Of a stretch of DNA of 64,000 bases, positions 13,864 through 36,871 are shown one piece after another; position 1 is the first letter of the stretch; the number at the start of each line of letters is the position of its first letter. A model generated the notes under the pieces. That model did no database searches. It was not told the DNA's origin and was given only the letters and a program-made list of their open reading frames with translations. Origin of the DNA: Candidatus Paceibacter sp. (GTDB lineage Bacteria > Patescibacteriota > Patescibacteriia > S139-126); the NCBI GenBank assembly GCA_020724865.1, contig DYGA01000001.1, positions 835 through 64,834 of the forward strand, in the 5' to 3' direction. The translations under genes and the position numbers were made by a program.

Positions 13864-15321
13864 TTAGGGATTTTGAGTTAAACAATTATTATATATAGCC
13901 CACGCATCTCGCCCATATTCTTCTGCTGCTGGTCCACTACCATTGTATTTACGAAAACAATCTTGTGTCACATCTGCCGGACAAATTTCTTTCCACAAAT
14001 TTGTCACGGCATCAAGGTTTATATCTAATGTAAATAAACTTTTCGGATCATATAATTTACTGCCAATTTGCCTGCAGTGCGGAGCGCCGTTACAAGCAGG
14101 CCCATCAGGAAAAACTGTTATTTGTCCCAAACCAATACCGTGAGAAAAACGCCAATCTAAACCAAGATCAGCTCTATTCGGATTAACAACATCATCATCA
14201 TTTACAGCCGCACCAGTAATACTACAAACAGCGTTTGATTTTTTACCACTATACATTAAACATCCACTATTTACAAAATCACGACGTGATTTTATTCCCT
14301 CTTTTCGGACATCTTCATCATGACCTAAAGCATCTGCTCTACCTGAAGACTCTTTGGTAAAGAGCGTAGCTAAAACACAATAATGTATATTATTTGCCTG
14401 TGAAACTTGCTTCATAGAATTTTTCATATCTTCACTAAATGGTTTGACTAACCTAGTACCGGTAATTTTTTCATAAGCATCACTGCCAATTAAAGTTATA
14501 CCTTCAACTTCATCAATTTTTAAAGGATTAAAACCTACTAAATTTGGATTAATAAAATAAAGCACAGTATAAGAACTAACTACCAGCAAAAGACCAATTA
14601 TAGAATCACGAATGGTTTCTTTGGCTTTATTTATACCTTCCGCGCTACCAGCCGCTGCCAACCACTGCATCCCTCCAAATGCCATATAAGCCACAACAAC
14701 TACTCCAATTGCGCCAATTAACCAATTAAATAATAAGGCAATATATTTAGATAATAGTTCACCATTTACTTCTATACCTTGACCTTTATTGATAGTAAAA
14801 ACCTTTCCACCAAATTCAACTGAGCCGGGGATAGTGACTTGGGGAGTAAATTCTAATCTTTCAATTTTTTCTGGAGGCCTATATTCAGTACTCAAAAATG
14901 AACTTAAAACCTGACCTATGCCTTGACTACAATTTATTTCCTCACAAGTTTGACCATCAATATATTTTGTAATCGGAACATTGCACTGCTCTTGCGTAAT
15001 ATTACTAGTACAAGTTTCAATTTTTTCGTTATATGTATTTATTTTTATACAACAACTTTTTTTATCAAGCGGACAATTTGTATTTTCTTCACAAAAATTA
15101 CTATATATTGGGTAACCTTCAACTGGTTGATAGTTTGGTTCATGAACACCACAATAAAAATCACAGGCAACTTTATCAATATTTTGATTACCTAAACAAT
15201 TACTATTTGGTAAACACTTGCAACACCCTGCTTGTGCACTCACTGGCAAAAAAAATAACCCAAATAAAAAAATAGAACCAATCAAAAATTTTATCCTATA
15301 ATTTCTCATTGATAATTTCAC
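13864..15321 (-). CDS. Secreted Cys-rich protein with a conserved two-helix hydrophobic hairpin (VirB2/TrbC-like) and a C-terminal lytic-transglycosylase-like domain (VirB1-like)
   Basis: Signal peptide; ~20 Cys in the N-domain; hairpin GAIGVVVVAYMAFGGMQWLAAAGSAEGINKAKETIRDSIIGLLLVVSSYTVL nearly identical in pattern to the 17360-18802 protein; C-terminal LATLFTKESSG...SHGIGLGQIT matches the SLT family-1 ES...G[LI]GLMQ catalytic motifs. Confidence 0.5.
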   Translation of the reverse strand: MKLSMRNYRIKFLIGSIFLFGLFFLPVSAQAGCCKCLPNSNCLGNQNIDKVACDFYCGVHEPNYQPVEGYPIYSNFCEENTNCPLDKKSCCIKINTYNEKIETCTSNITQEQCNVPITKYIDGQTCEEINCSQGIGQVLSSFLSTEYRPPEKIERLEFTPQVTIPGSVEFGGKVFTINKGQGIEVNGELLSKYIALLFNWLIGAIGVVVVAYMAFGGMQWLAAAGSAEGINKAKETIRDSIIGLLLVVSSYTVLYFINPNLVGFNPLKIDEVEGITLIGSDAYEKITGTRLVKPFSEDMKNSMKQVSQANNIHYCVLATLFTKESSGRADALGHDEDVRKEGIKSRRDFVNSGCLMYSGKKSNAVCSITGAAVNDDDVVNPNRADLGLDWRFSHGIGLGQITVFPDGPACNGAPHCRQIGSKLYDPKSLFTLDINLDAVTNLWKEICPADVTQDCFRKYNGSGPAAEEYGRDAWAIYNNCLTQNP

Positions 15322-16012
15322 TTAATTCTTCGCTGGTAAATAAACCACGATAAGGCGTATTGTCAATAAAAAAATAAGGAACAGCATCAATCTCTAAATC
15401 AGTAGCCTCAATATTATTCTCATATACTTTATTTTCCATCTGACCTTCATTTAAACATGCGTTGAATTCATTTATTGATAAATTTAAAGCGGCGGCGATT
15501 GATTCTAAAAATTTTAAATCAATATTTGCTTGATTCATAAAAACCTCATGTTGATATTCCCAAAATTTTCCTTGAGCATTGGCACAATAAACTGCTTGTT
15601 GTGCCAGCATACCTTCATTGGTAGAAGCCGTGCCTTTCCAAACTAAACGTAATATTGTCTCTGGATAAATTGCCAACAACTTATAAATTTCATCTTGCTG
15701 TATTTTACACAAAGGACTAAATAAGTCACAATAATAAAAAATTGTTACTTTAGCGTTAGCGCTACCTCTTCTCACATCATCTGGCAATACCTTTGGATAT
15801 AAAATCTTAGCATCACGAATTAAAGGGTCATTATAACTAATTTTTGGTCCTGCTGCATATCTAACGCTGGCCGGGGTTATATTGGTATTGTTTAAATATT
15901 GAACAAAAATAAATAAAAAAATCGATAGAAAAAATAACCCAACAGCAGCAGAAAAAAATAACCAAATTGAAACTTTTGATTTAGATTTATTTTGTTTTGA
16001 TTTTTTAGGCAT
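15296..16012 (-). CDS. DsbA-like thioredoxin-fold thiol:disulfide oxidoreductase with a non-canonical active site
   Basis: N-terminal TM anchor; KVTIFYYCDLFSPLCK aligns to the DsbA/BdbD VTVVEFGDYKCPxCK region with SPLC in place of CPxC and an extra Cys 7 residues upstream; later VYCANAQGKFWEYQHEVF and cis-Pro-loop-like AVPYFFIDN fit the DsbA fold. Confidence 0.55.
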   Translation of the reverse strand: MPKKSKQNKSKSKVSIWLFFSAAVGLFFLSIFLFIFVQYLNNTNITPASVRYAAGPKISYNDPLIRDAKILYPKVLPDDVRRGSANAKVTIFYYCDLFSPLCKIQQDEIYKLLAIYPETILRLVWKGTASTNEGMLAQQAVYCANAQGKFWEYQHEVFMNQANIDLKFLESIAAALNLSINEFNACLNEGQMENKVYENNIEATDLEIDAVPYFFIDNTPYRGLFTSEELSEIINEKL

Positions 16013-16085
16013 AAATATTAAATTTTAAATTATTAATTATAAATTATAAATGAATTTTAAATGATAAATTTATAATTTATAATTT
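16013..16085 (-). promoter_or_regulatory. AT-rich promoter region with tandem TATAAT-like boxes (TTATAATTTATAATTTT); the same motif style recurs upstream of many genes here
   Basis: aaatgataaatttataatttataattttcaaag directly upstream of the 15296-16012 start; similar boxes at 21995-22068, 24930-25037, 37860-37960, 50221-50280. Confidence 0.3.
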
Positions 16086-17354
16086 TCAAAGATTAATACT
16101 ATAAAGCCCACCTGTTGCTTTATCAACAAAGTATAAAACACTTTGATCTTGAGAAACCATTACTTCGCTGGCAGTATACTTAGTTAGATCGCCAACTGGC
16201 TTGGCAAGCAGTGTTTTGGAACCAGTAGTCAAATCTATACGGTAAAATAAATCTGGTATATCATCTGCTACTTCAGGCACATAAGCTGCTCCCTCCGGCA
16301 AATATTCAGGAACAGCACAATATGCATTGGTTCCGGCAATAGCACATTTATCCAACCAAGTTTGAATACCAAGAGAATTGTTATTCATACCAATATTATC
16401 CCCATCGGCTCTAGTAACCCATAACATTGGTCTGGAACCTGACGCTTCAGAGTATATTTGATAAATTACATTCTTTCCATCATCTAACCATTCACCCTTA
16501 AAACCCCTGCCTTGAACGGTTAAAGATTTAAAATTTTCTCCATTTTGACCAATTAAATAAATTTCTGATTGATTTAAACCTCTGCCTTCTCTATAAAAAG
16601 CAATAACTTGATTATTCGGCGACCAAGCCACCTGGACATCTTCTCCAGCATTATTCATAGGCTCAACAAACTTAATTTCACTACCGTCCGGAGTTGCTAC
16701 ACCTAACCAATCATCATTGGCTAAATCTGACTGCCATTTAAAACCAATATTTGTTCCGGTGCGAGAAAAATCAAACTCTGTCATCTGCCTAGGTAGGGTC
16801 ACCTGCTTATCTTGAGTAAAATCATAATAAATATTGGTACTATCCGGATATTCCAAAATTGCCTTTTCACCATCAGGTGACCAGGTGACTGTATCAACAT
16901 TGAAAAATCTTTTATCAGATAAAGGTTGTACCTCACCACTGGCAGTCAAACGATAAAATTTATTGTCAGCTGAGTCGTAATAATTGAAACTTTTACCGTC
17001 ACCAATTGGTTTAACTCCAGTAATATTTTTAGCAATCACTGTTTTAGCAGTCGTAAGCCCACCAATTGCTCGATCACTAACCGTAGGTTGACCGCCTATT
17101 TGACCTGGAGTAGTTGGTATTTGTCCCCCAGATTGGCCGATATTGCCAGAAATTGGCAGTCCGGTAATTGGATCTATCACCACTCCTGTGGGTGGACCTT
17201 CACCAATATCAGGTAACTGACCAGTTTGACCAGGAGTGGTATCTGGTGGAGTAATAGGTACTTCTGTTCGCCAAAATAAAAACCACAGCAGATATCCCAG
17301 TCCTACAACAATTACTGTAAAAATAATAATTTGTATAATTTTTTTTCTGTCCAT
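16086..17354 (-). CDS. Membrane-anchored TolB-like beta-propeller (PD40 repeats) protein with Pro/Gly-rich linker
   Basis: N-terminal TM; PD40-type repeats WSPDGEKAILEY and AWSPNNQVIAFY. Confidence 0.5.
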   Translation of the reverse strand: MDRKKIIQIIIFTVIVVGLGYLLWFLFWRTEVPITPPDTTPGQTGQLPDIGEGPPTGVVIDPITGLPISGNIGQSGGQIPTTPGQIGGQPTVSDRAIGGLTTAKTVIAKNITGVKPIGDGKSFNYYDSADNKFYRLTASGEVQPLSDKRFFNVDTVTWSPDGEKAILEYPDSTNIYYDFTQDKQVTLPRQMTEFDFSRTGTNIGFKWQSDLANDDWLGVATPDGSEIKFVEPMNNAGEDVQVAWSPNNQVIAFYREGRGLNQSEIYLIGQNGENFKSLTVQGRGFKGEWLDDGKNVIYQIYSEASGSRPMLWVTRADGDNIGMNNNSLGIQTWLDKCAIAGTNAYCAVPEYLPEGAAYVPEVADDIPDLFYRIDLTTGSKTLLAKPVGDLTKYTASEVMVSQDQSVLYFVDKATGGLYSINL

Positions 17355-17359
17355 AATTA

Positions 17360-18802
17360 TTAAAATTCAGGCGTATAATAATTTAACATAAGTACCCAAC
17401 ATCTTTCACCAGTATCACAACTACCTCCAACTGGGGGATATTCAGCACAAGGTTTCTCTATCCAATAAAAGGGTGGAAAATCGTGATTAGGTAATGGGTT
17501 AGGTCTTATATAACCATTTAAAGAAATTGTTGTGGGCCTCTCAACAGAGCATTGTGATTGTTTACTTAATACACATATAGAATCAGTGCCTTTACCAGCT
17601 CTTGGTGAATCAGAACAAGTAACTTCTATTTGATTTGATGTTAGTGGATTTGGTACGCCGGTCGCCCAATATTTTAAAACTCTTGGACTTCCATTTTCCA
17701 AACAAATTTCCTGATTATTGTATTTTCCTTCGCTACAAGGTATACGATTAAAAGTATAATTATTCAATGATAATAAATTGGCGTCTTCTATATCAGTTAA
17801 TACACATTCATCTGGTTGCATAAAATCTAAAGATACAATAGGTATAAAAGCTACCCCAGCTTTTAATATATCATTACGAAAACTGCAAACTTTATTATCT
17901 ATTTCTGAAACATTAGATGCTTTTTGAATAGTCTGTAAATATTGATCAAATAACTCACAACTTGATGTATCTTGAGATTTACAACGTTCATTAAATCTAC
18001 TCAAATCAACACACTCAAAACCAGCATTAGATGAACCTGATGTGTTTAATTTAGCTAAACAATATGTCCCATCACCACATTTTAAACCCTGACAAGTATT
18101 ATTGGGATTAATTTCCGAATAATAAGTAAAATTACACCAAGTATCTTCTTTGTTTACTTTGGTTTTACTTTCATCGCCAACTTTTATCCATTTTTGCGAA
18201 CTTTCTGTATCCACACAATAGTTAAGCAAAAAATTGGGTTTAATTCTTTCTACTCTGATATAATCAATATTTACTAAACGTGAATTTATAGTGCCAAGTA
18301 ATACATAAGAACCAACTGCCAGTAGCAAACCTATAAAAGCACCTTGAATAGTATCTTTGGCTTTACCAATTTTTTCAGCGTTTCCCGCAGCCATCATCCA
18401 TTCAAACCCGCCCCATCCTATATAAGCCACAGTAATAATACCAATAACATAAATAAAATAGGTATAAATAACTTTTAAATAATCAGGAAATTGTGAAACT
18501 TTGGTTAAAGTTCCGCCACTTTGAATATCAGGAATCGGGACCGAAAGGTTTATCTCATCTGGCTTTAAATAACATTTGCCATACTGAATATTTTCACTAC
18601 CTTTACATTCTCTTTGAAAATCAGCATCGCCAACCACAAAAAAATAATTTTCCGTTTCACTGCCCGCTTGTCCCAAACATTGTTCCTGTGTCCAGCATTG
18701 GGCTGGTATGTTTTGAGCTAAAACAACTTCAACTAAACCAAAACTAAATAAGGTTAAAAATGTTATAACAAATATTATTTTATATATATTCCACTTATTC
18801 AT
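17360..18802 (-). CDS. Secreted Cys-rich protein with VirB2/TrbC-like hydrophobic hairpin (paralog of the N-terminal part of 13864-15321)
   Basis: Signal peptide; >25 Cys; hairpin YFIYVIGIITVAYIGWGGFEWMMAAGNAEKIGKAKDTIQGAFIGLLLAVGSYVLL shares the motif VAY.xxGGxxWxxAAGxAExIxKAKxTI...IGLLLxVxSY with the 485-aa protein. Confidence 0.45.
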   Translation of the reverse strand: MNKWNIYKIIFVITFLTLFSFGLVEVVLAQNIPAQCWTQEQCLGQAGSETENYFFVVGDADFQRECKGSENIQYGKCYLKPDEINLSVPIPDIQSGGTLTKVSQFPDYLKVIYTYFIYVIGIITVAYIGWGGFEWMMAAGNAEKIGKAKDTIQGAFIGLLLAVGSYVLLGTINSRLVNIDYIRVERIKPNFLLNYCVDTESSQKWIKVGDESKTKVNKEDTWCNFTYYSEINPNNTCQGLKCGDGTYCLAKLNTSGSSNAGFECVDLSRFNERCKSQDTSSCELFDQYLQTIQKASNVSEIDNKVCSFRNDILKAGVAFIPIVSLDFMQPDECVLTDIEDANLLSLNNYTFNRIPCSEGKYNNQEICLENGSPRVLKYWATGVPNPLTSNQIEVTCSDSPRAGKGTDSICVLSKQSQCSVERPTTISLNGYIRPNPLPNHDFPPFYWIEKPCAEYPPVGGSCDTGERCWVLMLNYYTPEF

Positions 18803-18803
18803 T

Positions 18804-19373
18804 TTATTTTTTATTCATTTTGCCAATCCCAACATATAAAACACTAATTGACCACCAGGGGATAATACCAGTAAAAGGCAATATTTCAAGGACAGGGGCA
18901 ATAAAACCTACGACTTTTTTCTTTCCAGCATTATGCATAAACAAATATGTCCAAAGTAGCCCTCCAACTATAATATCTATAATCCAATCTAACCACCACA
19001 CCGTCTCAAATGAAGCGACGTCAAATACATCTTTTACCCCAGCTGCTATTATCATAAAATACCACATTATGCCTACTTGTAAAAAACCCCCTCCTAAAAA
19101 ATTTACCCCAATATCTTTAGCGCCCTTGGCTATATTTATCGCACCAGCGACTTTATTGCCCGCAGCAATCTGAGCAGCTCCTTTACTTATTTGTCTAGTA
19201 CTTTTACTTAAATCTTTGGCTCTCTTTAAAAGTCCAGCCTGTTCTTGTCCATTAGCGACATTTTGATTATCAATCCTATTTCTAGACAGCATCTCATCCA
19301 TACCTTGAGAACGAGAACTACGAATACGCTGTCTGTTTAATTCACGCTTATAATTATTCTCATTTTCAACCAT
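18804..19373 (-). CDS. Hypothetical polytopic membrane protein
   Basis: ORF track; three or four hydrophobic helices; 1-nt spacing from the upstream gene suggests one operon. Confidence 0.4.
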   Translation of the reverse strand: MVENENNYKRELNRQRIRSSRSQGMDEMLSRNRIDNQNVANGQEQAGLLKRAKDLSKSTRQISKGAAQIAAGNKVAGAINIAKGAKDIGVNFLGGGFLQVGIMWYFMIIAAGVKDVFDVASFETVWWLDWIIDIIVGGLLWTYLFMHNAGKKKVVGFIAPVLEILPFTGIIPWWSISVLYVGIGKMNKK

Positions 19374-19380: not shown

Positions 19381-19968
19381 TTATTTTTTTTCTGGACCGA
19401 TATTAAAATCTGCTACCAACCAAACACCATTATCTTTTACTAACTGTAAGGTAATATCTTGATAAAAAATTCTTTCGTTCCCACCACTAACCTCTCTTTT
19501 TTGCGTCTTAACTAAAACCACTGCTGAATTATTGGTCTGATTTTCAACATTAACTGCTAAAGTTTTCGTACTTAAGGCATAACTTTCTTTCACTTGTTTA
19601 GTGCTAGATCGTAAACTTTGTAAATCAGAATAAATGCTGTTCGTCACTACGCTTTTTATATCATCAATATTTTGCCAAGCGGCACTATCAGAAAAACTGC
19701 CATATCTTTCTACAAAATATCTACTAGTGTTAACTATTGAAGCATAGTCACCTATTTCTTCTTCTGACTTACCAGATATTTGTTGAGATAAAGTATCTTG
19801 AACTTGCTGATCCTGAGTAGAATTCACATCTGATTGTTCAATAATAACTGGGGGCTCACTGGATAAGGGTTGCTCTCTATTTTGCCACCACCACCAACCT
19901 AAAAAACCGCCGACTATCAGTACTAAAACAAACAGTATTATAAGTAATTTTTTTATTCTTGGATTCAT
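19381..19968 (-). CDS. Bitopic membrane protein, candidate VirB8-like component (N-terminal TM plus ~150-aa extracytoplasmic domain)
   Basis: Topology and size fit VirB8/TcpC-like proteins; sits immediately downstream of the VirB4 ATPase gene; no sequence motif confirmed. Confidence 0.3.
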   Translation of the reverse strand: MNPRIKKLLIILFVLVLIVGGFLGWWWWQNREQPLSSEPPVIIEQSDVNSTQDQQVQDTLSQQISGKSEEEIGDYASIVNTSRYFVERYGSFSDSAAWQNIDDIKSVVTNSIYSDLQSLRSSTKQVKESYALSTKTLAVNVENQTNNSAVVLVKTQKREVSGGNERIFYQDITLQLVKDNGVWLVADFNIGPEKK

Positions 19969-20067: not shown

Positions 20068-21960
20068 TTAAATATCCATCTCCTCAGCTTGATTTTGCTG
20101 ACGATTAAACTCCCTTTTTGCTTCTTCGATTTCCAACAACTGCTTGGGGTCGGAAGTAATGAGCTGATCTTCTGTATAGGAAGCGACAATTTTTATAGCT
20201 GCATGCTTGGACCCAGCAAAAAAAATCCCTTCGCCCACGCCGCATTCAAGCAATAGATATTTTTCCCCTTCAGTCAACATAAATGTTTTTTTCACGACAT
20301 CAATGGATGCGGGTGATTGTTTAAGTAACAGCTGCAAAGACGAGTTGGTAACGATTGCCTGACCATAAGGGCTACGTAAAAAATCATTGACATCTTGGGT
20401 TATAGTAGTTACTCCCAAATAATATTTTCGACAACGTTTTACCAAAGCATAGATAAACTTGGCACTATCATCATTTTGCATTAGCCACCAAGCTTCATCA
20501 ATAACCAATATTCTCTTTTTAAGTTCTGATCTTACTATATTCCAAATATAATTAACAATGGTATAAATCGCTATGGGCCTTAATTCATCTTCCAAATCTC
20601 TGACCGAAAAGGTTATCAACTGATTGTTCAAATCAATATTGGTTGGACTATTGAAAAGCCCTGAAAATGTACCTTCTGTATATTTTTTTAAACGCAAAAC
20701 CAAATCATCTCCTCCTTCCATGCCAGATAAAACTTCTTCAAAATCTGACATTAATGGTGTTTCCACGTGAGTCAAATCAGAAGTTGGCGTAATATCTTTT
20801 TTAGCATAAGTTTCAAGTAAGGCACGATCAATAATTGAATCCTCCTGATGGGTAAGATTCCCTAACATCAAACGCATTAACCCCTTCAAGGTAATAACTG
20901 CACTCCGAATAATATCGGCTGGTTTCATATCATCAACCTTACGAGGCAAATCAAATGGATTTATTTTACTGTCACTAGACAAAGAAATATTTATATAAGT
21001 CCCGCCGACAGCATCTGATAAATGTTTGTATTCTTTTTCGGGGTCAATAATAATTACATCGGTTCCCATCATCAAACTGCGTAAAACTTCAAGTTTGATA
21101 GCATAACTTTTACCAGCGCCAGAAGTAGCAAAAACAACCGAATTAGCATTTTGTAAAGAAAATCTATCAAATAAAATCAAACTATTATTATGTCGATTAA
21201 TACCATATAATATTCCTTCATCACTAGTAAGTTCTGAGGATATAAACGGAAAAGACGATGCCACCGGTGAAGAATTCATATTGAAAGAAATCATCAACTC
21301 ATCATTACCCAAGGGTAAGGTGGAATTAAACCCCTGTTCAGCTTGATATAATGTTCTTTTTGTATAAACTAACTTGCTACCAAAAAGCGATTCAATTTTT
21401 TCAGTCAAATTATCAAGTTCTTCTTTGGAATTGGCGTACATAGTTACATACAACGCGTATTGGAAAAACTTTTCTATACCTTGAGTTAAGTCGTCACGCA
21501 ATTTTTCAATATCTTGCAGGGCCGTTTCTCGGATAGGATCACGGGGAGCGCCTTTTTCCGCATCAGCAATCAATTGTGCTTCCAAAACGCCAACTTTATT
21601 TTTCAATTGCTTTAAAACAACCTCAGCTGGAATCGGATAAAAAAACATACCAATATCCATAGTCGCGGAATAATTTATTACTGGCGCAAACCAACCAACT
21701 GAAATATAACGCGGATAATTAATAACAAATATTGTCCGCACAAATTTTGAACCTAACTCCAAATAAGATGGAGTTACTTTAAAAGCAGCCGGAGCAATAA
21801 TATCTCGAATTTTTACCGTACCTTCACGAAATACTTTTTCTGCCTCCAATAGTTGTTTTTCATCCAAAGTTCTTTCCACCTCAATTTCTGCCTGTTCACG
21901 ACGAGAAAGTATCTGTTTAACTGGTCTATTCTTTTGTATGGCTTGTTTGGGATTAAACAT
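20068..21960 (-). CDS. virB4: VirB4/TrbE-family type IV secretion ATPase, C-terminal ATPase portion
   Basis: Walker A VVFATSGAGKSYAIK; Walker B RILVIDEAWWLMQ; overall VirB4/CagE architecture lacking the usual N-terminal domain. Confidence 0.8.
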   Translation of the reverse strand: MFNPKQAIQKNRPVKQILSRREQAEIEVERTLDEKQLLEAEKVFREGTVKIRDIIAPAAFKVTPSYLELGSKFVRTIFVINYPRYISVGWFAPVINYSATMDIGMFFYPIPAEVVLKQLKNKVGVLEAQLIADAEKGAPRDPIRETALQDIEKLRDDLTQGIEKFFQYALYVTMYANSKEELDNLTEKIESLFGSKLVYTKRTLYQAEQGFNSTLPLGNDELMISFNMNSSPVASSFPFISSELTSDEGILYGINRHNNSLILFDRFSLQNANSVVFATSGAGKSYAIKLEVLRSLMMGTDVIIIDPEKEYKHLSDAVGGTYINISLSSDSKINPFDLPRKVDDMKPADIIRSAVITLKGLMRLMLGNLTHQEDSIIDRALLETYAKKDITPTSDLTHVETPLMSDFEEVLSGMEGGDDLVLRLKKYTEGTFSGLFNSPTNIDLNNQLITFSVRDLEDELRPIAIYTIVNYIWNIVRSELKKRILVIDEAWWLMQNDDSAKFIYALVKRCRKYYLGVTTITQDVNDFLRSPYGQAIVTNSSLQLLLKQSPASIDVVKKTFMLTEGEKYLLLECGVGEGIFFAGSKHAAIKIVASYTEDQLITSDPKQLLEIEEAKREFNRQQNQAEEMDI

Positions 21961-22750: not shown

Positions 22751-22822
22751 TTGGGATTTAGGATTTAGTATTTAGGATTGTAAACTTAACCATTCATCCT
22801 AACTCCTAGCTCCTAACTAATA
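22751..22822. repeat. Inverted TTAGGAT/TTAGGAG heptad arrays (gggatttaggatttagtatttaggatt ... atcctaactcctagctcctaact)
   Basis: Direct reading; same family as 19977-20062. Confidence 0.5.
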
Positions 22823-23269
22823 ATTTTCTCCTTTATAATATCCACCAGTATTGACAATCAATGACAACTCGGCCAATCTGGTGGTTGATAATTGTTTATT
22901 GGTTGGACTAACCAATTTTACTGTATTTAGTAAATCATCTTCTTTCTTTTCTATATCCACATCTTTATCTTTGGAAGAAACTGGGGAATTATCTTTGGCC
23001 CAGATTCGTAAAGATGGTCTCATAATTGTTTGAATGACATTCAGTAAAAAAATATGAAAAGGAGCACCATTAACTTTCAAAAATCCGAAAGCTGCTCCCA
23101 GGGCAACCGTAAAAATCGAAGCAAGTAAAAATCCAGAAAAATCTAAAGTTTTAAAATAGGTGAACAATGCCCCCATAACCACAATCATGATCACAAACTG
23201 ACGAACAGTTATAGGACCTAAGATTTTACTCTCAACATCAATGAATTGTGGCACTAAGAATTGTTGCAT
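22817..23269 (-). CDS. Small two-TM membrane protein, candidate VirB3/PrgI-like
   Basis: 150 aa with two hydrophobic helices (VIMIVVMGALFTYF, LLASIFTVALGAAFGFL) encoded just upstream of the VirB4 pieces, as VirB3-like proteins usually are. Confidence 0.3.
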   Translation of the reverse strand: MQQFLVPQFIDVESKILGPITVRQFVIMIVVMGALFTYFKTLDFSGFLLASIFTVALGAAFGFLKVNGAPFHIFLLNVIQTIMRPSLRIWAKDNSPVSSKDKDVDIEKKEDDLLNTVKLVSPTNKQLSTTRLAELSLIVNTGGYYKGENY

Positions 23270-29012: not shown

Positions 29013-32000
29013 TTAAGGACAACTTGGTCCAACACAAACGGCGTTATTGACAACACTTTGAGCATATCTTTGCGGATTTGCTCCAAAGCCCCAATTATCC
29101 ATAACTTGAATAGTAATATTATAATTACCCGGCACACCAGCATAAGAGTGATACAAAACATGAGGATCACCAGCAGAAGGCCTTTCGTTAAAGTACCCCT
29201 GAACAATAGTATTAGCTGAACCATCACCCCAGTTAATATTGTAACTACGTAAAGGCAATTGATCATTGGCGATATTGGTAGTAAAACTCAATTTAACCGT
29301 TCCGCCATCAGGTAAACTTACAGTTGAAGAAGCATCATTAATTAAAATATTTCCAATCTGAGGTAAAATACTTGCTCCAATATTATTCCAACCACCACCG
29401 GCAACTTCCACATAACGCCAAGACCCGTTTTCATACTGCCAACGATATTCACCTAAAGATTTAATAAACAACTGACTTAAACTACTTCTAGCTGAAACCG
29501 TATCAGTATTGGGCATCGGACTTGGAGTTTGCCAAGAACCAACACAAACTCCAAAATTGATTCCGTCACCTGAGTAACAACTCTTGGCAGTTTCATCATC
29601 AATACACAAATTACCATTACGAGGGCCACCAACACAAACTGAACCAACACAATTTCCGTTATAACATGCGTAAGGGGTGCCAGCCCTAATATTGGGTCCT
29701 GGATTCAAAGATCCATCGTTCATAGTCAAAGTGTTCGCCGCTTCCACATAAATTGGCTGATTGCCTGGTTCAGTTGGTCGCGAATCCCAAGTAGTAGGAT
29801 CATTTTCATTTTGCATTTGATTGGATCCGTCTTGGAAATAACGAGACAATCCACTCTGATAAACTGCACCAAAGGGAAGACTATCTTTGATATAGTTATA
29901 ATCAAGAGGCGTCACATTGTAACCGCTAAACTGATCAACTCTGGTCCAATAAGGATAAGCTGTGATGTCACCATTTGGTTCAATTTGAGCAACTTTTTCC
30001 AAAACCATACAAGGTTCACGCAAACTATACTCTAATGAATAACCAGCTGCTTGACTACCGCTACTACCACTATAATCATCCATAAATATATAATAAGCTC
30101 TTGGATTTCCTTGTGCTGTAAAAATAACTGCAAAAACTAATAGATCGCTGGAATCGCCACAAGTACCTTCTACCGGCCTATCTTCCCCATAATAAGCAGA
30201 ACTACAATAATTAAACCAAGCATATTCATCATTTGCCATGGCATTAGACAATTCAGTTCCACCATAAGACCCAAAAGCAGCTATCTGATTTTTACTCAAC
30301 CTATGCGCCCTTGTTAAAACAGCCCAATCAGGATACTCACCTCTAGTAGATTTTTTTCTTAAAAATATTTTTTCTATATCATGTTCAAAATATTTATTTT
30401 CAGGGGTACCACTAATATCACGGATTATATACCTCGTACCATCTCCTCTAGAACAACCACCTATTGTAAATCCAACTCCACTTTTAAGACCAGACCAATC
30501 ATCACAACTATTATTTTCAAAAATAAAAGGCTCTTGTCCTACATATGATGGATAAATAGTAAATGCTCCCCTTATTACATTTAATTTATAATTATCATGT
30601 GTGTAGAGCCCATAATTTGGATTAGAACTTTCATTACCCGCTGAAACCGCACAATAATACAACGGTACTTTTTCCTCAAAAACCAATGGTCGTTCATTGA
30701 TTTGGGCTACTGAGCCTTTGATAATATCAATTGGCCACCAGTTCACACAGTAAGCCGGATTTCTGGGATCTGCTTCAGCACAAAAACCTGGCCAACCAAC
30801 ATATGATTTAGTGCCTTTGACATAGTTACACTCAGGCGAAGAACTTTCCGGATATAAACGACAACGTTGGCTAACCAATGTTTCTGGATTATTTTTCACT
30901 TGCAAAGCTGGTAGTATAGTCAAACCATCAATAAACATTGTACCTTCTTTGATATTCAAAAGTTCAGCTCTGATGGTTATATTGTTGGCAGTATTGTTAA
31001 ACTTGATAGAAAACTGTTGCCAACCGCCAACACTATAATCCTGTTTAGTGCCAAATTGGCCTACTGTATTACTGCCTTGTAAAATTCTTATATTAGCTCC
31101 AGCGTTATTATTGTCGGTTGGAATATTTTCCCACCTAATAAACCCAGATAAAATATATTCTGAAGGTGACAACGACAATGGTTGATTTAAGAAAACATTA
31201 CTATTGTCGGCACTGGCGTTGTTAGGACTGATAGAAAGTTTTGCGGCTTTTAAACCAGAAATAGCTTGGCTATCAGGGGTCACCCGACAAGTGCTACCAG
31301 CACTACAATTTGAACTATCTGTATTCCAATAAGGAAATGGAGATTGCAGTGGCTGATTGGTAGTAATAGTGTCTTCAAAACTTGGGTTGTATAAAACGTT
31401 GGCTTCATTGCCAATTTGGATCATTTTACTATATGGTAAATACCCTGGAGTGGTACCATTGCCAGTAGCAAAACCCGACCAACTCATTCCCGCTTTGGTA
31501 TAACCACTCATCATTCGCAAATCTTCGACAGTATAAGGAGCTGTATATCCAGTAGCACCGCTGATTTGTTGGCCGACTATTTCAGTATCTGGCAGTTGAG
31601 GAAAACTATTACATTCGCCACTATCATTTAACCCATTACAAATACCTATATCAAAACATTTATCATCACGATTACCTTCACTATCATAAGCTTGTATACG
31701 CGTTTTACAATACAACCACTCTTCACAGACCCGATCTTTTTGTACTTGTAAAATTATATTGACACTATTTTCCGCAGGATTTGAACTACTAATCGGCACA
31801 CTGCCGTCAGGCGTGGCGGTGGTATAAGCACTAGCCGTATAAGCTTGAGGTGCGCCGTCAACTTTGTTAAACAGTCTGCAACCACGCTCGCGATCAACTA
31901 AACCATTGCAGGCAGCGGTATTGACTGACTGCTCTAAGTAAAAATATGAACTCTTGGTCACATCAGATTCGCCTTCTGGATCAATGTATTGACTACAACC

Positions 32001-35000
32001 CATTGCTTCTGGAGAACAAAGCCCTACCCAACCGTCATAATTTGGATCTGTGCTTGGTATTGGTTGCGAGGGATAAGATTGTAAATCTGGACAAAACTCT
32101 TCAGTGCCAGTTTTGTACCAATTAGCCTGAGTACGACCGGGTAATAATTTATATTCACAAGTGCGATTAGCCGGATCTATCAAAAAGGCTGTGGCTCCGG
32201 TGCGTTCATTGGTGTATTGTTCACAGTAAAGCCCGCCAACACCGCACATTGTCGTATTATAATTTTCTGGATTATCAATAATATATTTATCATTGAAAGC
32301 AACTACTGCTCTATTGTCAGATTGACGATTTAAAATAGCTTCTCCCGCCAAAGTACAACCAGCAAACTGACCAGCACAATATTTTTCTTGATCATCAACC
32401 AAGTATACTATAGTGTCAGCTGGCACCGTAACATCATCAAATCCTTGCGGATCAGAAAAGGCGTTATTGCCGGTGTTGTAAGTTTGACTATAAGGAGAAT
32501 TGGAATTTTTGGTATCAATCAAAGCTTTACAGCCCACCTTGGAATCACTACAGAGAGATGTAAAACTAAGCAAGTTTATTTGATTGCCCTTAACATCACG
32601 ATAAGCCTGACAACCCAACTGAGCGCCCACAAAAGGTTGATTACAAATTGCCGGAGTTTCCCAAGAATCATCTATTAAATAATAACTATCTGTTACTTCT
32701 CTAACTATAACATTATCTAGGTAAGCGTTGACTGCATTGGTTTGTAAAAATTCATAAGCAGCGACTTCCCGATCAAAATTAACTGGCCCGAGTCGATAAT
32801 ACTGCCATTCATCAGTCAAACTAACTGTGCCAAAGCTACGCTGCGAACCAGCTATGGGTTGTAAATCTGTAAATTGAATTATATTTTGAGCTTTAGCTTG
32901 TTTGATAAATGCTAATTGCTTGGAGTCTTTTTGAGTAATTTGACTAACTTGGTAAGCTTGAATTTCAAAAGATAAATTAGCCGCCGATCCTGCGCTTCTG
33001 GCCCAAAAAGAAATAGTATAATTTTTACCTTGTTTGATAATTTCTCTGACAGATTTATGTGCCCGAACACCTGACAACTGTAAAGAGTGTCCGCCTACAT
33101 ACACTGATTCACTAGAATTAAATCCATTAGTCCAACCCTCGCTAGTGCCAGATTCAAAATCATCGTTGACTATAATAGTAACCACATTACCTTGATTACC
33201 TCGATATTCTTTACAACCTACAACTTCGGCACGACAAGACCGACTAAAAGATTCAATGCCATAAATAACACTAGAATCCACTGTGCGACGGAAAGGATGA
33301 CAATCATCAGTAGCATAAGTTACAGTCATAATATCCCGTGACCAACTACTACCTTCCGCATCAATAAAGGTGCGACAATTTAGCGGATCATTAGTAGGAT
33401 CACAACTATTACCAGTGGGCGCTCCACCACCAGCTGACTGTAAACGCCAAGTTTTCAATTGATAACCAGCTGTATCACTACCTTCCCAAGTATAAAAAAC
33501 TTTGGCTGCTGGATCGTTGGGCAATATACACTCTCTAATAAAAGTGAAATATCTTATTCCTTCGCCGCCTTGAGCAACCTCATCTAAATTGGTAAATTGT
33601 TCACAACCAACATCGCTTAAACGACAGCTAGTTGCAGAAGCAGGAATTATATTTTCAATACTAGGAGTCAGTAAAGGATTTGCTCTTTGTTCAAAATAAG
33701 TTGGCACCTCTAAATATTGATCATAACCTATACACGAAGCACTGCAATAATCATTACTGCCTAAAACCGCGGGCACGGGTGGATCGCCATTGATTGGAGT
33801 ATATAAACTACAACCAACTTCAGCAGCCGTACAACTTTGAGCATAATTATCACATTCGGAGTCACGGTTAGGATCGTTGACATCAGCTGGACAATTCAAA
33901 TAACTTGGTGCTTTCTTCATATTTTTTTCCTGAATCAACCCCCATTCACCATAAGAATCAAGTATCCCAGCATCAGCATAAATACTCTGATTATTTTGGA
34001 TATATTGGAATATTGATTGGGTCGTGGCTTCATAACCATCAGGCGCAGTTATATTTGTAAGTTCTATGAATTTATTACAACCCTCGTCTTTCGAACTGCA
34101 AGTCTTTACTTGATTATTGAAATATCGCGCATAACTTATGTCACCTAAATCACTGCGATTGTAAACATCACCAAAGGTAATTTGATTGTCACTACCAAAA
34201 CCGTTGGTAGTTTGATTCCAAATATCATCTGCCCAGTAGCCACTTGGAGTTTTATACATACTGTACCATCGGCAACCAACTTGTGACGAATCGCAAGTTT
34301 GCATAGTAGCAGTCAAATAAGAAATTTTATCACTGGTTGATTTTTTTACATATGTTTCACATGTAGAAAACTGAGGGAGACAAGCTTGTCCTTGAAAATT
34401 CCAAGTATTTTTTTCCTTGGTACAATAGCCATATTTTTGACAGGTGCCATTGGGATTTTCAACAATACAAGTCTGCTCGTCTGCACAATAATTTGCTCTT
34501 TGTAATGATTCTTCACTAACTCTTATGGTTCCACCAAAACCATCTGCCACTTCAGTTTCAACGTTTACACGTTGTGATATTTGCGGACCCGGACCTTCTA
34601 TACGACAATCATATTCTGGTAATTTCAAAACCCAATTTGGATCTATAAGATGATAAAATGGAGAAGTTGAAGAACTAAAGGCCTGAAAGTTATCAGCTGG
34701 TGTACCCATAACTTGAGCCAGAGTAAATGTTTCGTTGTTGGTATTTATATCTTTGATATAAAGGGCGGCCAATTCCCAAGTAACCGGAATTATTCTGTAT
34801 TTCCGCATAAAGACTAAACTACGATAAGGGTAACCATTGGTATAAGATGGTTCACTACCATCACTCAAAAAACCAAATGGTTTATTGGGATCCAGATAAC
34901 CTTGCTCAATCGCTTGTCTGACGGTCAAACGTTGGTCAATCGCTGTCGCTAAATTATTATCAATAATACAATTATCAAATAAACGAGCTTGATTTTCTGG

Positions 35001-36089
35001 TGGACAGGACGAGAGTTTGCCCAAAACATCTACACTTCCGCCGCCACGAAAAGATGGAATTATAAATTCTGCATAACTAGCATCTGCGCCTCTGGTTGCA
35101 TAAGAACTGGCAAAATCTCTTGGACCGCCACCGGTAGCGCCACCTTTGCCAGCCAAAACACCTTTTTGTAATCTTTGCAAAAATTTAGACGCTAAAGTAT
35201 TGGTAAATGTCCGCAAAGCATCAGCGGCGATATCACCAGTCAAAGTGGTCCAACCAGAATCAACTGATTTTTCTGCAGTTGCTCCTAGCCAATTTTTTAT
35301 ATCCAAAGCTGGGGTCTTAATAGATTCAAATCCTAAATCACCAATCGGAGATTTTAAACTCTTAACATCTGATTCAATTGACCTAATCAAAGTGGCCATT
35401 TGCTCATCTTGAGCTCTTTTGGTGGAAATATTGGAATATAAAATAAACTGAGCCCCTAAATCATTTGATCGGGGATTAAAATATTGAGCTAACAAGTGAA
35501 AATTTTCTGCATCAAGTAATCGTAAATCAGGTTTTTGTCCATTGATGGATACGTTCAATAATTTAGTTTTTAAAATATCATTGAAAGTGCAGGTTGCTCT
35601 TTGCGGTTCAAAAGCTTGTTTGGTTCTTAAAATCAACTGTAATTTTATATTAGCATTATAAGGTTCACACAAACTGACACCAAATGTGCCTTTAGCTAAC
35701 TCATCCAACCCCTTACCAATCGCCTCATCGCCAATTCCTCTAATATAAGCTCCAATACCTTCATCCCAATACAAAGGTTTTTGTCCTTTATCACCAGTAG
35801 CCAGCCAAGTAGCTGTATCATAAGCTACTCTTTGTAAGAAATAGTCTAGAGCATTTTTGTAAACAATTTTAGCTGCCCTTTGTACAAAAAACCAAATTTT
35901 TTCGGCAATTGAAACTTCAATCTGAGGTTTGCTAACCAATTCAACTGTAGGAGTAGGAACACCAATAGCTTTAATATTTTTTATCGGCAATATATAGCCA
36001 CCTAAAATAAAAAATAAAAACAAAACCAAAAACAAAGATCTGATACTTGTCTTTTTTTGATCTTTGCCTGGTTTAATATTTTTTGGCAT
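29013..36089 (-). CDS. Giant (2358 aa) secreted/membrane-anchored Cys-rich surface protein with C-terminal PKD domain and lectin/CBM-like beta-sandwich regions; candidate adhesin of the T4SS-like system
   Basis: Uninterrupted ORF; N-terminal TM/signal LFLVLFLFFILGGYILPI; >100 Cys and many Trp/Tyr/Asn/Gly; C-terminal INWGDGSANTIV...LYHSYAGVPGNYNITIQVMDNWG matches the PKD motif (WDFGDGS...H.Y...G.Y.VTL.V.D..G); mid-region GGHSLQLSG...YTISFWARSAGSAANLSFEIQAY is CBM-like. Confidence 0.6.
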   Translation of the reverse strand: MPKNIKPGKDQKKTSIRSLFLVLFLFFILGGYILPIKNIKAIGVPTPTVELVSKPQIEVSIAEKIWFFVQRAAKIVYKNALDYFLQRVAYDTATWLATGDKGQKPLYWDEGIGAYIRGIGDEAIGKGLDELAKGTFGVSLCEPYNANIKLQLILRTKQAFEPQRATCTFNDILKTKLLNVSINGQKPDLRLLDAENFHLLAQYFNPRSNDLGAQFILYSNISTKRAQDEQMATLIRSIESDVKSLKSPIGDLGFESIKTPALDIKNWLGATAEKSVDSGWTTLTGDIAADALRTFTNTLASKFLQRLQKGVLAGKGGATGGGPRDFASSYATRGADASYAEFIIPSFRGGGSVDVLGKLSSCPPENQARLFDNCIIDNNLATAIDQRLTVRQAIEQGYLDPNKPFGFLSDGSEPSYTNGYPYRSLVFMRKYRIIPVTWELAALYIKDINTNNETFTLAQVMGTPADNFQAFSSSTSPFYHLIDPNWVLKLPEYDCRIEGPGPQISQRVNVETEVADGFGGTIRVSEESLQRANYCADEQTCIVENPNGTCQKYGYCTKEKNTWNFQGQACLPQFSTCETYVKKSTSDKISYLTATMQTCDSSQVGCRWYSMYKTPSGYWADDIWNQTTNGFGSDNQITFGDVYNRSDLGDISYARYFNNQVKTCSSKDEGCNKFIELTNITAPDGYEATTQSIFQYIQNNQSIYADAGILDSYGEWGLIQEKNMKKAPSYLNCPADVNDPNRDSECDNYAQSCTAAEVGCSLYTPINGDPPVPAVLGSNDYCSASCIGYDQYLEVPTYFEQRANPLLTPSIENIIPASATSCRLSDVGCEQFTNLDEVAQGGEGIRYFTFIRECILPNDPAAKVFYTWEGSDTAGYQLKTWRLQSAGGGAPTGNSCDPTNDPLNCRTFIDAEGSSWSRDIMTVTYATDDCHPFRRTVDSSVIYGIESFSRSCRAEVVGCKEYRGNQGNVVTIIVNDDFESGTSEGWTNGFNSSESVYVGGHSLQLSGVRAHKSVREIIKQGKNYTISFWARSAGSAANLSFEIQAYQVSQITQKDSKQLAFIKQAKAQNIIQFTDLQPIAGSQRSFGTVSLTDEWQYYRLGPVNFDREVAAYEFLQTNAVNAYLDNVIVREVTDSYYLIDDSWETPAICNQPFVGAQLGCQAYRDVKGNQINLLSFTSLCSDSKVGCKALIDTKNSNSPYSQTYNTGNNAFSDPQGFDDVTVPADTIVYLVDDQEKYCAGQFAGCTLAGEAILNRQSDNRAVVAFNDKYIIDNPENYNTTMCGVGGLYCEQYTNERTGATAFLIDPANRTCEYKLLPGRTQANWYKTGTEEFCPDLQSYPSQPIPSTDPNYDGWVGLCSPEAMGCSQYIDPEGESDVTKSSYFYLEQSVNTAACNGLVDRERGCRLFNKVDGAPQAYTASAYTTATPDGSVPISSSNPAENSVNIILQVQKDRVCEEWLYCKTRIQAYDSEGNRDDKCFDIGICNGLNDSGECNSFPQLPDTEIVGQQISGATGYTAPYTVEDLRMMSGYTKAGMSWSGFATGNGTTPGYLPYSKMIQIGNEANVLYNPSFEDTITTNQPLQSPFPYWNTDSSNCSAGSTCRVTPDSQAISGLKAAKLSISPNNASADNSNVFLNQPLSLSPSEYILSGFIRWENIPTDNNNAGANIRILQGSNTVGQFGTKQDYSVGGWQQFSIKFNNTANNITIRAELLNIKEGTMFIDGLTILPALQVKNNPETLVSQRCRLYPESSSPECNYVKGTKSYVGWPGFCAEADPRNPAYCVNWWPIDIIKGSVAQINERPLVFEEKVPLYYCAVSAGNESSNPNYGLYTHDNYKLNVIRGAFTIYPSYVGQEPFIFENNSCDDWSGLKSGVGFTIGGCSRGDGTRYIIRDISGTPENKYFEHDIEKIFLRKKSTRGEYPDWAVLTRAHRLSKNQIAAFGSYGGTELSNAMANDEYAWFNYCSSAYYGEDRPVEGTCGDSSDLLVFAVIFTAQGNPRAYYIFMDDYSGSSGSQAAGYSLEYSLREPCMVLEKVAQIEPNGDITAYPYWTRVDQFSGYNVTPLDYNYIKDSLPFGAVYQSGLSRYFQDGSNQMQNENDPTTWDSRPTEPGNQPIYVEAANTLTMNDGSLNPGPNIRAGTPYACYNGNCVGSVCVGGPRNGNLCIDDETAKSCYSGDGINFGVCVGSWQTPSPMPNTDTVSARSSLSQLFIKSLGEYRWQYENGSWRYVEVAGGGWNNIGASILPQIGNILINDASSTVSLPDGGTVKLSFTTNIANDQLPLRSYNINWGDGSANTIVQGYFNERPSAGDPHVLYHSYAGVPGNYNITIQVMDNWGFGANPQRYAQSVVNNAVCVGPSCP

Positions 36090-36106
36090 AAATTATTAAT
36101 TTTAAA

Positions 36107-36871
36107 TTAATTACCTTCTGCCCTGATCTGTTCATATATATCCATCAACTCTTGATCGCTGTAAGCATTAACTTGTTCGGCAGGCACACCATTGGCAATC
36201 AATAATTCTCGCAATTGCGCTGGGGAAGAAATAACCGGTTCAGCCGTGGTAGTATTATTATTTTGACCAGAAATTGTTCCTACTTGATTTTCAGTTTCCA
36301 GATATGCTTGTAAAAACATCTGTTCTAATGAGGCATCATCAATTTCATCCAAAGTTGCCTGGTCTAACCCGCTATTTATAAGTAATTGTCTAATTTCTGC
36401 GGGAGTAATTTTATAAGGATCTATCAACGCATCAGTAGTGACTTTGGCTTGACTAGATGTAGTTACTGTCTGACTATCTACTAAACATTTTTGACCAGCT
36501 GGACAAAGTGGGTCATTACCAGTTTCTATTTCCAATTTATCAAAATAACTATCAGAATCAGAATCTTCCAAATAGGGAGAAGTTCCATAGACATACAGTT
36601 CATCATAATCTGATAAACCATCGTTATCCGTATCTTTTGTTCTCAGTTCGGTTAAACTTTTAATTTGATCTTCAACCGAATTTTGTACCTGTGATTGGGC
36701 AAGAAGTTTACTCTTATCAATTTGAAATGGGCTTTTAATAGTATTAAGTATTCGCCACGAGCCAAAAATTAACGCAATTAAACCAATTATAAGAAAAAAT
36801 CTTCCTTGATTCTTAGGAACAGTAAAAATTTTTTTTAATTTTTCAAATAATATACCTTTTACCCTACCCAC
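36107..36871 (-). CDS. Membrane-anchored protein with thrombospondin type-3-like calcium-binding repeats
   Basis: N-terminal TM; DTDNDGLSDYDELYVYGTSPYLEDSDSDSYFD matches the DxDxDGxxDxxE Ca-binding repeat. Confidence 0.5.
   Translation of the reverse strand: MGRVKGILFEKLKKIFTVPKNQGRFFLIIGLIALIFGSWRILNTIKSPFQIDKSKLLAQSQVQNSVEDQIKSLTELRTKDTDNDGLSDYDELYVYGTSPYLEDSDSDSYFDKLEIETGNDPLCPAGQKCLVDSQTVTTSSQAKVTTDALIDPYKITPAEIRQLLINSGLDQATLDEIDDASLEQMFLQAYLETENQVGTISGQNNNTTTAEPVISSPAQLRELLIANGVPAEQVNAYSDQELMDIYEQIRAEGN

Follow-up and report, generated by a model that had tools for sequence, protein, structure and literature searches.

Relaxase-less type IV secretion systems (T4SSs) with TrsD, PrgI, VirB6, and VirB2-like pilins are known in Patescibacteria (Wang 2023, PMC10633639; Quinonero-Coronel 2025, PMC12102498), a group in which relaxases were found in only 103 of 3035 genomes (PMC12102498) and whose T4SS, the literature concludes, does not serve ordinary conjugation (PMC10633639; PMC12102498; PMC12857230). 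In Saccharibacteria, the T4SS and its pilin array—encoded by a cluster without a recognizable coupling protein or relaxase—are essential for epibiotic growth (PMC10633639), and for the class ABY1 a T4SS context beside recG, radA, and comF has already been published (PMC12102498). How does a further locus compare with these systems? We analyzed a 64-kb stretch of DNA from Candidatus Paceibacter sp. (assembly GCA_020724865.1, contig DYGA01000001.1, positions 835 to 64,834 of the forward strand; hereafter, the window), which carries a T4SS locus at window positions 13864-36871. The locus sits on the chromosome of an ultrasmall bacterium of the ABY1 class of Patescibacteria (the candidate phyla radiation, CPR). 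It is almost certainly a vertically inherited chromosomal T4SS of ABY1 Patescibacteria, within a clade derived from the monoderm conjugation machinery of mating-pair formation class FATA (MPF-FATA, CD1110-type). As such, it is another example of an already described kind and not a new type of system.

According to the listing of open reading frames (ORFs), the locus comprises 15 co-oriented minus-strand genes—a preliminary description of this DNA had counted sixteen—one of which is a pseudogene fragment of 56 amino acids (aa). Independent gene calls on public contigs identical to the window yield the identical gene set. Intergenic gaps are short (1-230 bp), and the locus shares the GC content of its flanks in a window of uniform composition and low GC (about 33%). 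The membrane machine consists of VirB4 (TrsD plus ATPase), PrgI/VirB3, an extended VirB6, and a VirB8-fold protein. The exported set, each member of which has a signal peptide or a membrane anchor, consists of two hairpin proteins, a propeller, a thioredoxin-fold protein, and a 2358-aa Cys-rich protein.

The membrane machine and its relatives

The machine is encoded by five genes, given here in the order of their coordinates with the families or structures on which each assignment draws (TM, transmembrane):

19381-19968, minus strand: VirB8-like bitopic protein, 195 aa, with an N-terminal TM helix, a linker, and an NTF2-like alpha+beta domain (assigned by fold)
20068-21960, minus strand: VirB4 ATPase, 630 aa (Pfam P-loop_TraG, NCBIfam NF045971, PDB 4AG5)
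22069-22746, minus strand: TrsD-like protein, 225 aa, the VirB4 N-terminal domain as its own gene (NF045975, TrsD, PF26593)
22817-23269, minus strand: PrgI/VirB3-like protein (two TM segments; PF12666, 31.1 bits, cut-off 27)
26427-28895, minus strand: extended VirB6/TrbL-like polytopic protein, 822 aa (a homologue passes Pfam TrbL; fold match TrwI)

VirB4 matches Pfam P-loop_TraG (E = 1.9e-30) and scores 366 bits, against a curated cut-off of 325, on NF045971, the model named "VirB4-like conjugal transfer ATPase, CD1110 family." Among solved structures, the Gram-positive VirB4 4AG5 matches it best (E = 2.8e-47) and TrwK comes next (E = 1e-7). The Walker A motif of the window VirB4, ATSGAGKS, lies at residue 278. 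The VirB4-specific curated model and the PDB matches rule out an FtsK/HerA-type ATPase. The N-terminal domain of VirB4 is encoded separately: the 225-aa ORF covers positions 92-276 of NF045975, the VirB4 profile of the Mycoplasma integrative and conjugative element (ICE), and the 630-aa protein covers positions 292-892. The split is real because the two proteins cover complementary parts of one profile. The smaller ORF also matches TrsD (1.3e-5) and carries a precomputed match to PF26593 (TraC-like); it is present in 81 of 84 loci, with a median identity of 56%. The PrgI/VirB3-like gene was found in 77 of the 84.

Direct Pfam and NCBIfam hidden Markov model (HMM) scans of the 822-aa VirB6-like protein returned no significant match. 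Its homologue P0011 (36% identity, E = 3e-42), however, passes Pfam TrbL with 28.5 bits against a cut-off of 25.9. An AlphaFold model of the N-terminal 400 residues (predicted local distance difference test score, pLDDT, of 78) has R388 TrwI/VirB6 (7o3v_F) as its top Foldseek match in the PDB, at weak scores (E = 0.076, probability 0.99, target-normalized TM-score, TMt, 0.46). The protein has about eight hydrophobic helices in residues 1-340, followed by a hydrophilic Lys/Glu-rich tail of ~450 aa, an architecture that fits the "extended VirB6" type (PMC12857230). For the VirB8-like protein, whose gene is present in 73-75 of the 84 loci, the AlphaFold model (pLDDT 83) has CagV as its top PDB match (E = 6.9e-5, TMt 0.70) and also matches TrwG, TraH of pIP501, PrgL, Brucella and Agrobacterium VirB8, and TcpC. 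A family profile of 47 VirB8-like sequences searched against the PDB gave low-complexity or TM matches only. The alignments behind both AlphaFold models were shallower ones drawn from the protein database.

These assignments bear out what the preliminary description had proposed for the machine, namely a VirB4 ATPase, a VirB6/TrbL-like polytopic protein, and candidate VirB3-like and VirB8-like proteins. Of the outcomes that it had named as refuting, neither an FtsK/HerA-type ATPase of another system nor an unrelated family for the polytopic protein was found. That description had also called the split VirB4 unusual; the split stands, whereas its supposed oddity does not, since TrsD plus VirB4 is the normal arrangement in the Patescibacteria clade and the most abundant T4SS component there (PMC12102498).

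Which partners of a conjugation machine accompany these genes? A Walker-A inventory covering the window ORFs of at least 100 aa, bar three, recovered ClpB/C, RecG, RadA, VirB4, YifB/ComM, and one ABC transporter. VirB4 is thus the only T4SS ATPase within the 64 kb, and no VirD4/TcpA-type coupling ATPase appears in the inventory. Likewise, no second T4SS ATPase was found in 80 related loci, inspected for up to 10 kb on each side of virB4; the other Walker-A ORFs of at least 300 aa there are ClpB, EF-G, Fic, AdoHcyase, and a propeller protein only. No Pfam relaxase family was matched among the scanned window ORFs (at least 100 aa, except 60145-60471, 60515-60829, and the nested 4847-5221 and 56623-56988); recognition of an oriT requires a relaxase. 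The absence of VirD4 and relaxase reported in the preliminary description therefore holds for the window, as does its view of the locus as a Gram-positive/CPR-style T4SS that does not serve ordinary conjugation, which agrees with the literature on the clade cited above. The sole recombinase in the window is of the XerC/D type and lies 13.5 kb from the locus. A mobile island was considered and rejected on the uniform composition and the class-wide gene order; direct repeats were not searched.

How conserved is the locus among relatives? A genome scan with VirB4 yielded the 80 related loci, which are the nearest relatives (72-98% VirB4 identity) and, wherever the record title is informative, come from metagenome-assembled genomes named Falkowbacteria, Komeilibacteria, Jacksonbacteria, Veblenbacteria, Parcubacteria, and "Patescibacteria group." About 30 of the related contigs are titled "uncultured Gammaproteobacteria bacterium" (e.g., L005-L007 and L012-L014) and have CPR gene order, apparently a placeholder or mislabel. 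The gene order common to the 80 loci—giant protein, VirB6, p440/p391, PrgI, TrsD, VirB4, VirB8-like protein, a variable hairpin/PD40/Dsb segment, radA, recG—agrees with the published ABY1 context (PMC12102498). Median identity across these loci (L005-L084) is 76% for VirB4, 50% for RecG, and 46% for RadA. That VirB4 is more conserved than RecG and RadA fits a core cellular machine and not a mobile element. The best VirB4 in a plasmid database is at most 35% identical, and the plasmid copies come from Bacillota or Actinomycetota.

The closest described system is that of the Patescibacteria clade itself, as represented by Southlakia epibionticum (SEML1_0006-0019). Like the locus described here, it has VirB4 with a separate TrsD, PrgI/VirB3, an extended VirB6, and PF18895 hairpins, as well as lysozyme-like and M15-type hydrolases and an NTF2-like protein. 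Systems of this clade are chromosomal, without a nearby relaxase or type IV coupling protein (T4CP), and the ABY1 neighborhood of recG, radA, comF, and ksgA recurs here. In contrast, Saccharibacteria have six small pilins in an array (genes of ~380-420 bp, ~125-140 aa) and encode their lysozyme and M15B hydrolases as separate proteins, whereas in this locus and its ABY1 relatives the hairpin lies within a Cys-rich protein of 277-586 aa to which the hydrolase is fused. A 2358-aa Cys-rich protein with a carbohydrate-binding module (CBM) and the p391/p440 family, conserved here, also set the locus apart from Saccharibacteria, as does a VirB8-like protein recognizable by fold.

With the monoderm MPF-FATA systems (Clostridioides difficile CTn2/CD1110, pCF10 Prg, pIP501 Tra, and Mycoplasma ICE Mbov_0395-0397), the locus shares a VirB4 that passes the CD1110 model, PrgI, TrsD and VirB4 that jointly span the Mycoplasma-ICE profile, a VirB8 fold resembling PrgL, TraH, and TcpC, and a weak hairpin match to Mbov_0395. 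Unlike them, it has no relaxase family, T4CP, or mobile-element border recognized in the window, a VirB4 no more than 35% identical to plasmid copies, and a chromosomal position fixed in the whole class. The closest VirB4 in the plasmid database (35% identity, E = 4e-121) is encoded on the 898-kb non-mobilizable replicon of Pontibacillus sp. ALD_SL1 (NZ_CP062975.1). Its cluster (L085, 9486-19039) has the core order seen here, running from two pilin-like proteins through a 779-aa polytopic protein, a PrgI-like and a TrsD-like protein, and VirB4 to a wall hydrolase; the annotation shows neither a relaxase nor a T4CP within 14 kb. It differs in its small pilin-like proteins (145 and 151 aa, Mbov_0395 family), its separate 1050-aa M23 hydrolase, and its host, a free-living Firmicute. 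Because this cluster has them, VirB2-like hairpins are not confined to Patescibacteria among monoderm T4SSs. Helicobacter ComB and Bordetella Ptl are diderm systems with VirB7, VirB9, and VirB10. ComB, Sulfolobus Ced (both DNA importers), and Ptl (a toxin exporter) resemble the locus in being VirB4-driven, with VirB2/3/6/8-type parts and no T4CP or relaxase (PMC12857230), but the window VirB4 scores only 46 bits on the CedB model, for which the cut-off is 700.

Large hairpin proteins with exchangeable C-terminal domains

Two further genes of the locus, 1.3 and 4.7 kb downstream of virB4, encode proteins with a VirB2-like hairpin:

17360-18802, minus strand: 480-aa protein with a signal peptide, a short Cys-containing N-domain, a VirB2-like hairpin (aa 107-178), and a Cys-rich C-terminal ectodomain of 300 aa; 22 Cys
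13864-15321, minus strand: 485-aa protein with a signal peptide, a Cys-rich N-domain, a VirB2-like hairpin (aa 190-262), and an SLT-type, VirB1-like C-domain; 22 Cys

Each has a signal peptide and two TM segments joined by a short basic loop. The two hairpins score 26.7 and 26.2 bits against PF18895 (T4SS_pilin; cut-off 26.6) and also match the Mbov_0395 pilin-like family, weakly. A hairpin HMM built from relatives finds these two proteins, and no others, in the whole window. We scanned 33 hairpin proteins (29 from related ABY1 loci, the two in the window, and two variants on the L001 contig described below), and 30 of them match PF18895, the best with E = 3.7e-11; the family's Saccharibacteria members match PF04956 (TrbC/VirB2) too. 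Judged by sequence, the hairpins clearly belong to the T4SS_pilin family, and the two VirB2/TrbC-hairpin proteins named in the preliminary description are thereby recovered. None of the 29 from related ABY1 loci is a small pilin, their lengths being 277-586 aa; at 480 and 485 aa, the two hairpin proteins here are likewise not the small mature subunit expected of VirB2.

What do the hairpins carry? The C-domain of the 485-aa protein has no direct Pfam or NCBIfam match, and a phmmer search against the PDB gave only a chance match to a bromodomain. Residues 186-485, however, align over their full length, at 31-32% identity, with P0042 and P0043, both of which pass Pfam SLT, and the motifs TKESSG (E-S), GLGQIT, and YNGSG (YNxG) are kept in these alignments. 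The VirB1-like lytic transglycosylase domain proposed in the preliminary description thus rests on relatives that pass the SLT model and not on a direct Pfam or PDB match. Among relatives, the C-terminal domains of hairpin proteins include SLT, SLT_3, VanY/M15, M15_4, NlpC/P60, and C39_2.

These domains differ even between near-identical strains. Outside two replaced blocks, the L001 contig, from another sample, and the window share 99.6-99.97% identity over 22 kb. In the 480-aa protein, one block takes the place of the final ~187 aa; in the 485-aa protein, the other takes the place of the final ~221 aa, with VanY/M15 in place of the SLT-like domain and a breakpoint directly after the hairpin. 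The swaps lie at window positions 13866-14528 and 17360-17921, compared with L001 17374-17985 and 14042-14542. In L005, whose VirB4 is 98% identical, a C39_2 domain occupies the C-terminal position of the 485-aa protein. Because the cassettes swap between near-identical strains, the target of the hydrolase is probably variable, and a host wall is a likelier target than the cell's own. A bolder interpretation, which we consider unlikely as it stands, is that the ABY1 VirB2-like hairpin may be a carrier module for interchangeable outward-facing cassettes (Cys-rich binding domains or SLT, VanY/M15, NlpC/P60, and C39-like hydrolases) that are exchanged at the hairpin boundary to suit host walls.

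In the published accounts of Patescibacteria T4SSs consulted here, we found neither the uniformly large ABY1 hairpin proteins nor the strain-swapped C-terminal hydrolase domains, nor the p391/p440 family, the 2358-aa Cys-rich CBM protein, or the DsbA-like protein without CxxC.

Accessory proteins and genomic setting

The remaining eight genes of the locus encode exported and accessory proteins, along with a pseudogene:

15296-16012, minus strand: membrane-anchored thioredoxin-fold protein, 238 aa (DsbA/Thioredoxin_4; Thioredoxin_4 1e-14, DSBA 2.4e-9)
16086-17354, minus strand: membrane-anchored protein, 422 aa, in which a linker rich in Pro and Gly is combined with a TolB-like beta-propeller of the PD40 family (25.1 bits, cut-off 20.9)
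18804-19373, minus strand: 189-aa protein, polar at its N-terminus, whose C-terminal part has three TM-like segments (close relatives only)
23320-23670, minus strand: pseudogene of a 23S_rRNA_IVP-type four-helix bundle, interrupted after codon 56 by an in-frame TGA; a passenger and not a machine part
23725-24900, minus strand: p391, a 391-aa cytoplasmic protein whose C-terminal ~120 aa are conserved (no known family; conserved accessory component)
25038-26360, minus strand: p440, a cytoplasmic protein of 440 aa that lacks TM segments and has 1 Cys (no known family)
29013-36089, minus strand: 2358-aa surface protein containing 68 Cys and a single TM/signal anchor at the N-terminus (CBM_4_9-type jelly roll, weak PKD-like C-terminus)
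36107-36871, minus strand: 254-aa protein, anchored in the membrane at its N-terminus, that has one TSP3-like Ca-binding repeat and two helical repeats (TSP3_bac 23.8 bits, short of the cut-off of 25)

The exported proteins are where cysteines accumulate (22, 22, and 68); the cytoplasmic and TM components hold 0-2. In the 2358-aa protein, about ten C-x6-C ...GCxx[YF] loops hold many of them. This protein, a candidate adhesin or wall-spanning component, scores 27 bits on CBM_4_9, just over the cut-off of 25.9. The preliminary description had presented it as a Cys-rich PKD-containing protein; the Cys richness is evident, but the PKD match is sub-threshold (E = 0.042). In 22 related loci, a large ORF partly similar to it lies directly upstream of the VirB6-like gene. 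The TolB-like propeller of the same description is borne out by the PD40 score above, and the PD40 gene co-occurs with hairpin genes in 21 loci.

The proposed DsbA-like oxidoreductase, in turn, has the thioredoxin fold but not the canonical CxxC. Its active site reads C-x3-S-P-L-C (YYCDLFSPLCK); in CDLFSPLC, the nucleophilic Cys has become Ser and an extra Cys lies 4 residues upstream. The same is seen in the three closest relatives (L005-L007), whereas CxxC is retained in 30 more distant syntenic homologues.

The 391-, 440-, 189-, and 254-aa proteins had no significant match in direct Pfam and NCBIfam scans. In 72 of 84 loci, the p391/p440 family is encoded between VirB6 and PrgI, and the N-terminal ~90 aa of p440 are common to longer p391-family proteins in other ABY1 loci. 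None of 50 p391 relatives has a meaningful Pfam match, and a 50-sequence profile searched against the PDB returned low-complexity or TM matches only. The IVP-type pseudogene is recent: apart from the stop, which aligns with an Arg of intact 120-aa relatives (a CGA-to-TGA change), its frame is undamaged. Recoding of UGA was considered and rejected, because TGA terminates three ordinary genes and the interrupting stop aligns with that Arg. Copies of the IVP-type gene occupy differing positions in related T4SS loci.

Housekeeping genes flank the locus, with leuS and ksgA on its upstream side and radA and recG on its downstream side. Three features mark the presumed transcription unit:

12326-12341, minus strand: terminator-like hairpin and T run downstream of radA, a candidate end of the transcription unit
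12505-13860, minus strand: radA (sms; TIGR00416, 503 bits against a cut-off of 403)
36901-36929, minus strand: candidate operon promoter, sigma-70-like TTGACT-17-TATAAT plus TG, with 11/12 matches, ~30 bp upstream of the first gene

Co-oriented with the T4SS genes, radA starts 3 bp past the last of them, a position kept across ABY1 loci, and it is probably co-transcribed with them. The site at 36901-36929 is the strongest sigma-70-like site of the region, and no minus-strand terminator-like site was found in the intergenic gaps between it and the terminator after radA. Promoter-like sites overall were not enriched relative to shuffled sequence, and the operon limits are for that reason only suggestive. 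On the other side of radA, recG (9002-11059, plus strand) is convergent with the T4SS locus, and further genes in the window include a comF-like gene (6696-7358, plus strand), clpB/C, and YifB/comM (42461-43990, minus strand). Four genes linked to transformation or recombination—YifB/ComM, ComF-like, RecG, and RadA—lie at most 10 kb from the locus; ComM is not part of the published description of the ABY1 context. A wall hydrolase with LysM and Peptidase_M23 domains (41123-42421, plus strand) lies ~4 kb upstream of the locus on the opposite strand; some VirB1-like proteins have M23/LysM domains (PMC12102498). Farther away, a three-gene run (52897-56873, minus strand) encodes a 464-aa protein with fn3 and two proteins of 614 aa (Ser-, Thr-, and Gly-rich) and 217 aa without a known family, possibly other surface proteins.

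Proposed host contact and competing functions

What might the assembled system do? In a canonical T4SS, VirB4 together with VirB3, VirB6, and VirB8 powers the extraction and polymerization of VirB2. A coupling protein and a relaxase are required for DNA transfer but not for the assembly of an F-type pilus. Because the window has no coupling protein or relaxase, its VirB2/3/4/6/8 set would correspond to the pilus- or stalk-building part of a T4SS rather than to the part that recruits DNA. An assembly-type mechanism for host contact is, in our estimate, plausible while falling just short of an even chance; the interpretation as a whole, identity and mechanism combined, is the best explanation we have, and we hold it with moderate confidence.

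Under this mechanism, VirB4 would pull the hairpin proteins out of the membrane at VirB6, and these would form a short wall-spanning structure, either envelope-spanning or pilus-like. Each subunit would expose its Cys-rich ectodomain, and one protein a peptidoglycan hydrolase that would open a wall—the cell's own or, given the cassette swapping, more likely the host's. The giant CBM protein would bind glycans on the host surface and act as an adhesin, and the assembled structure would serve contact-dependent exchange of macromolecules with the host cell. A host-interaction role is supported by the finding that the Southlakia T4SS is essential for epibiotic growth (PMC10633639). The preliminary description had inferred a role in surface-structure assembly or adhesion, to which the radA/recG/comF context suggests DNA import as an alternative.

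Several points weigh against host-contact assembly. With N-domains of 100-190 aa and C-domains of 220-300 aa on the subunits, VirB2-type helical packing may be doubtful, and the hairpin may be a mere membrane anchor. In the structural models, the VirB6 fold match is weak, and the NTF2 fold of the VirB8-like protein matches unrelated proteins as well, such as the CaMKII hub; because of these matches outside T4SSs, genomic context bears part of the VirB8 assignment. The loss of CxxC from the Dsb-like protein of this lineage makes a role in folding the Cys-rich proteins questionable. T4CP homologues occur elsewhere in many Patescibacteria genomes (PMC12102498), and the inspection here covered 64 kb. 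Finally, the conserved link with radA, recG, comF, and comM points towards DNA handling.

That last point belongs to the main rival, which we judge rather unlikely: a DNA-import machine like ComB or Ced that would take DNA from the host or the environment and pass it to the adjacent recombination helicases. The position of radA immediately downstream on the same strand is kept even though ABY1 RadA is only ~46% identical, recG is convergent, comF-like and YifB/comM genes lie in the window, and no minus-strand terminator-like site lies in an intergenic gap on the stretch from the candidate promoter to the terminator after radA. Moreover, the ABY1 link to comF, recG, and radA has led others to propose import of DNA or other macromolecules (PMC12102498). 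Yet in Southlakia competence requires ComEC, and growth does not depend on comEC, whereas the T4SS is essential (PMC10633639; PMC12857230), which argues that the T4SS there has a role other than ComEC-linked DNA uptake. The low CedB score of VirB4 also tells against import, gene adjacency may be mere inheritance, and import alone leaves the polymorphic wall hydrolases and the giant CBM protein unexplained.

A translocator of protein effectors seems to us improbable. The hairpin proteins would then be membrane-anchored VirB1-type hydrolases or adhesins, like PrgK and TraG of Gram-positive plasmids, and the channel would export other effectors to the host. The set of SLT, cysteine peptidase, and metallopeptidase domains does parallel both Gram-positive VirB1-like proteins and the lysozyme and M15B proteins that Southlakia encodes separately, the hairpin proteins are much larger than known pilins, and protein export is one option raised by Wang 2023 (PMC10633639). 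However, the window has no T4CP to recruit cytoplasmic substrates, the locus has no candidate effector or immunity genes, and the hairpins clearly group with T4SS_pilin, a family whose Saccharibacteria members match TrbC/VirB2. Conjugation of the ordinary kind, by a module of an integrated element whose relaxase, oriT, and coupling protein would lie outside the window, is very improbable: the CD1110-type VirB4 attests conjugative ancestry and T4CP-like genes lie far from virB4 in many Patescibacteria genomes (PMC12102498), but gene order with radA, recG, ksgA, and leuS is kept across the whole class, composition is uniform with a distant XerC/D as the only recombinase, relaxases are rare in the phylum's genomes (PMC12102498), and the VirB4, RecG, and RadA identities follow the pattern expected of a core cellular machine.

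The near-universal, relaxase-less Patescibacteria T4SS is essential in the sole species tested. With assignments for VirB3, VirB4/TrsD, VirB6, and VirB8, the locus provides a clean and fully parsed example from ABY1, and it raises DNA import tied to radA, recG, and comM as a concrete alternative. The ABY1 "pilins" are large Cys-rich proteins with strain-variable wall-hydrolase cassettes, and they are the lineage-specific part most worth following up. The cassettes predict a hydrolase specificity for host or own peptidoglycan, recombination breakpoints located at the hairpin, and a correlation with host range. If the hairpins are indeed carrier modules, they would amount to an enzymatic, wall-piercing "pilus" with polymorphic tips, a use of a T4SS that has not been described.

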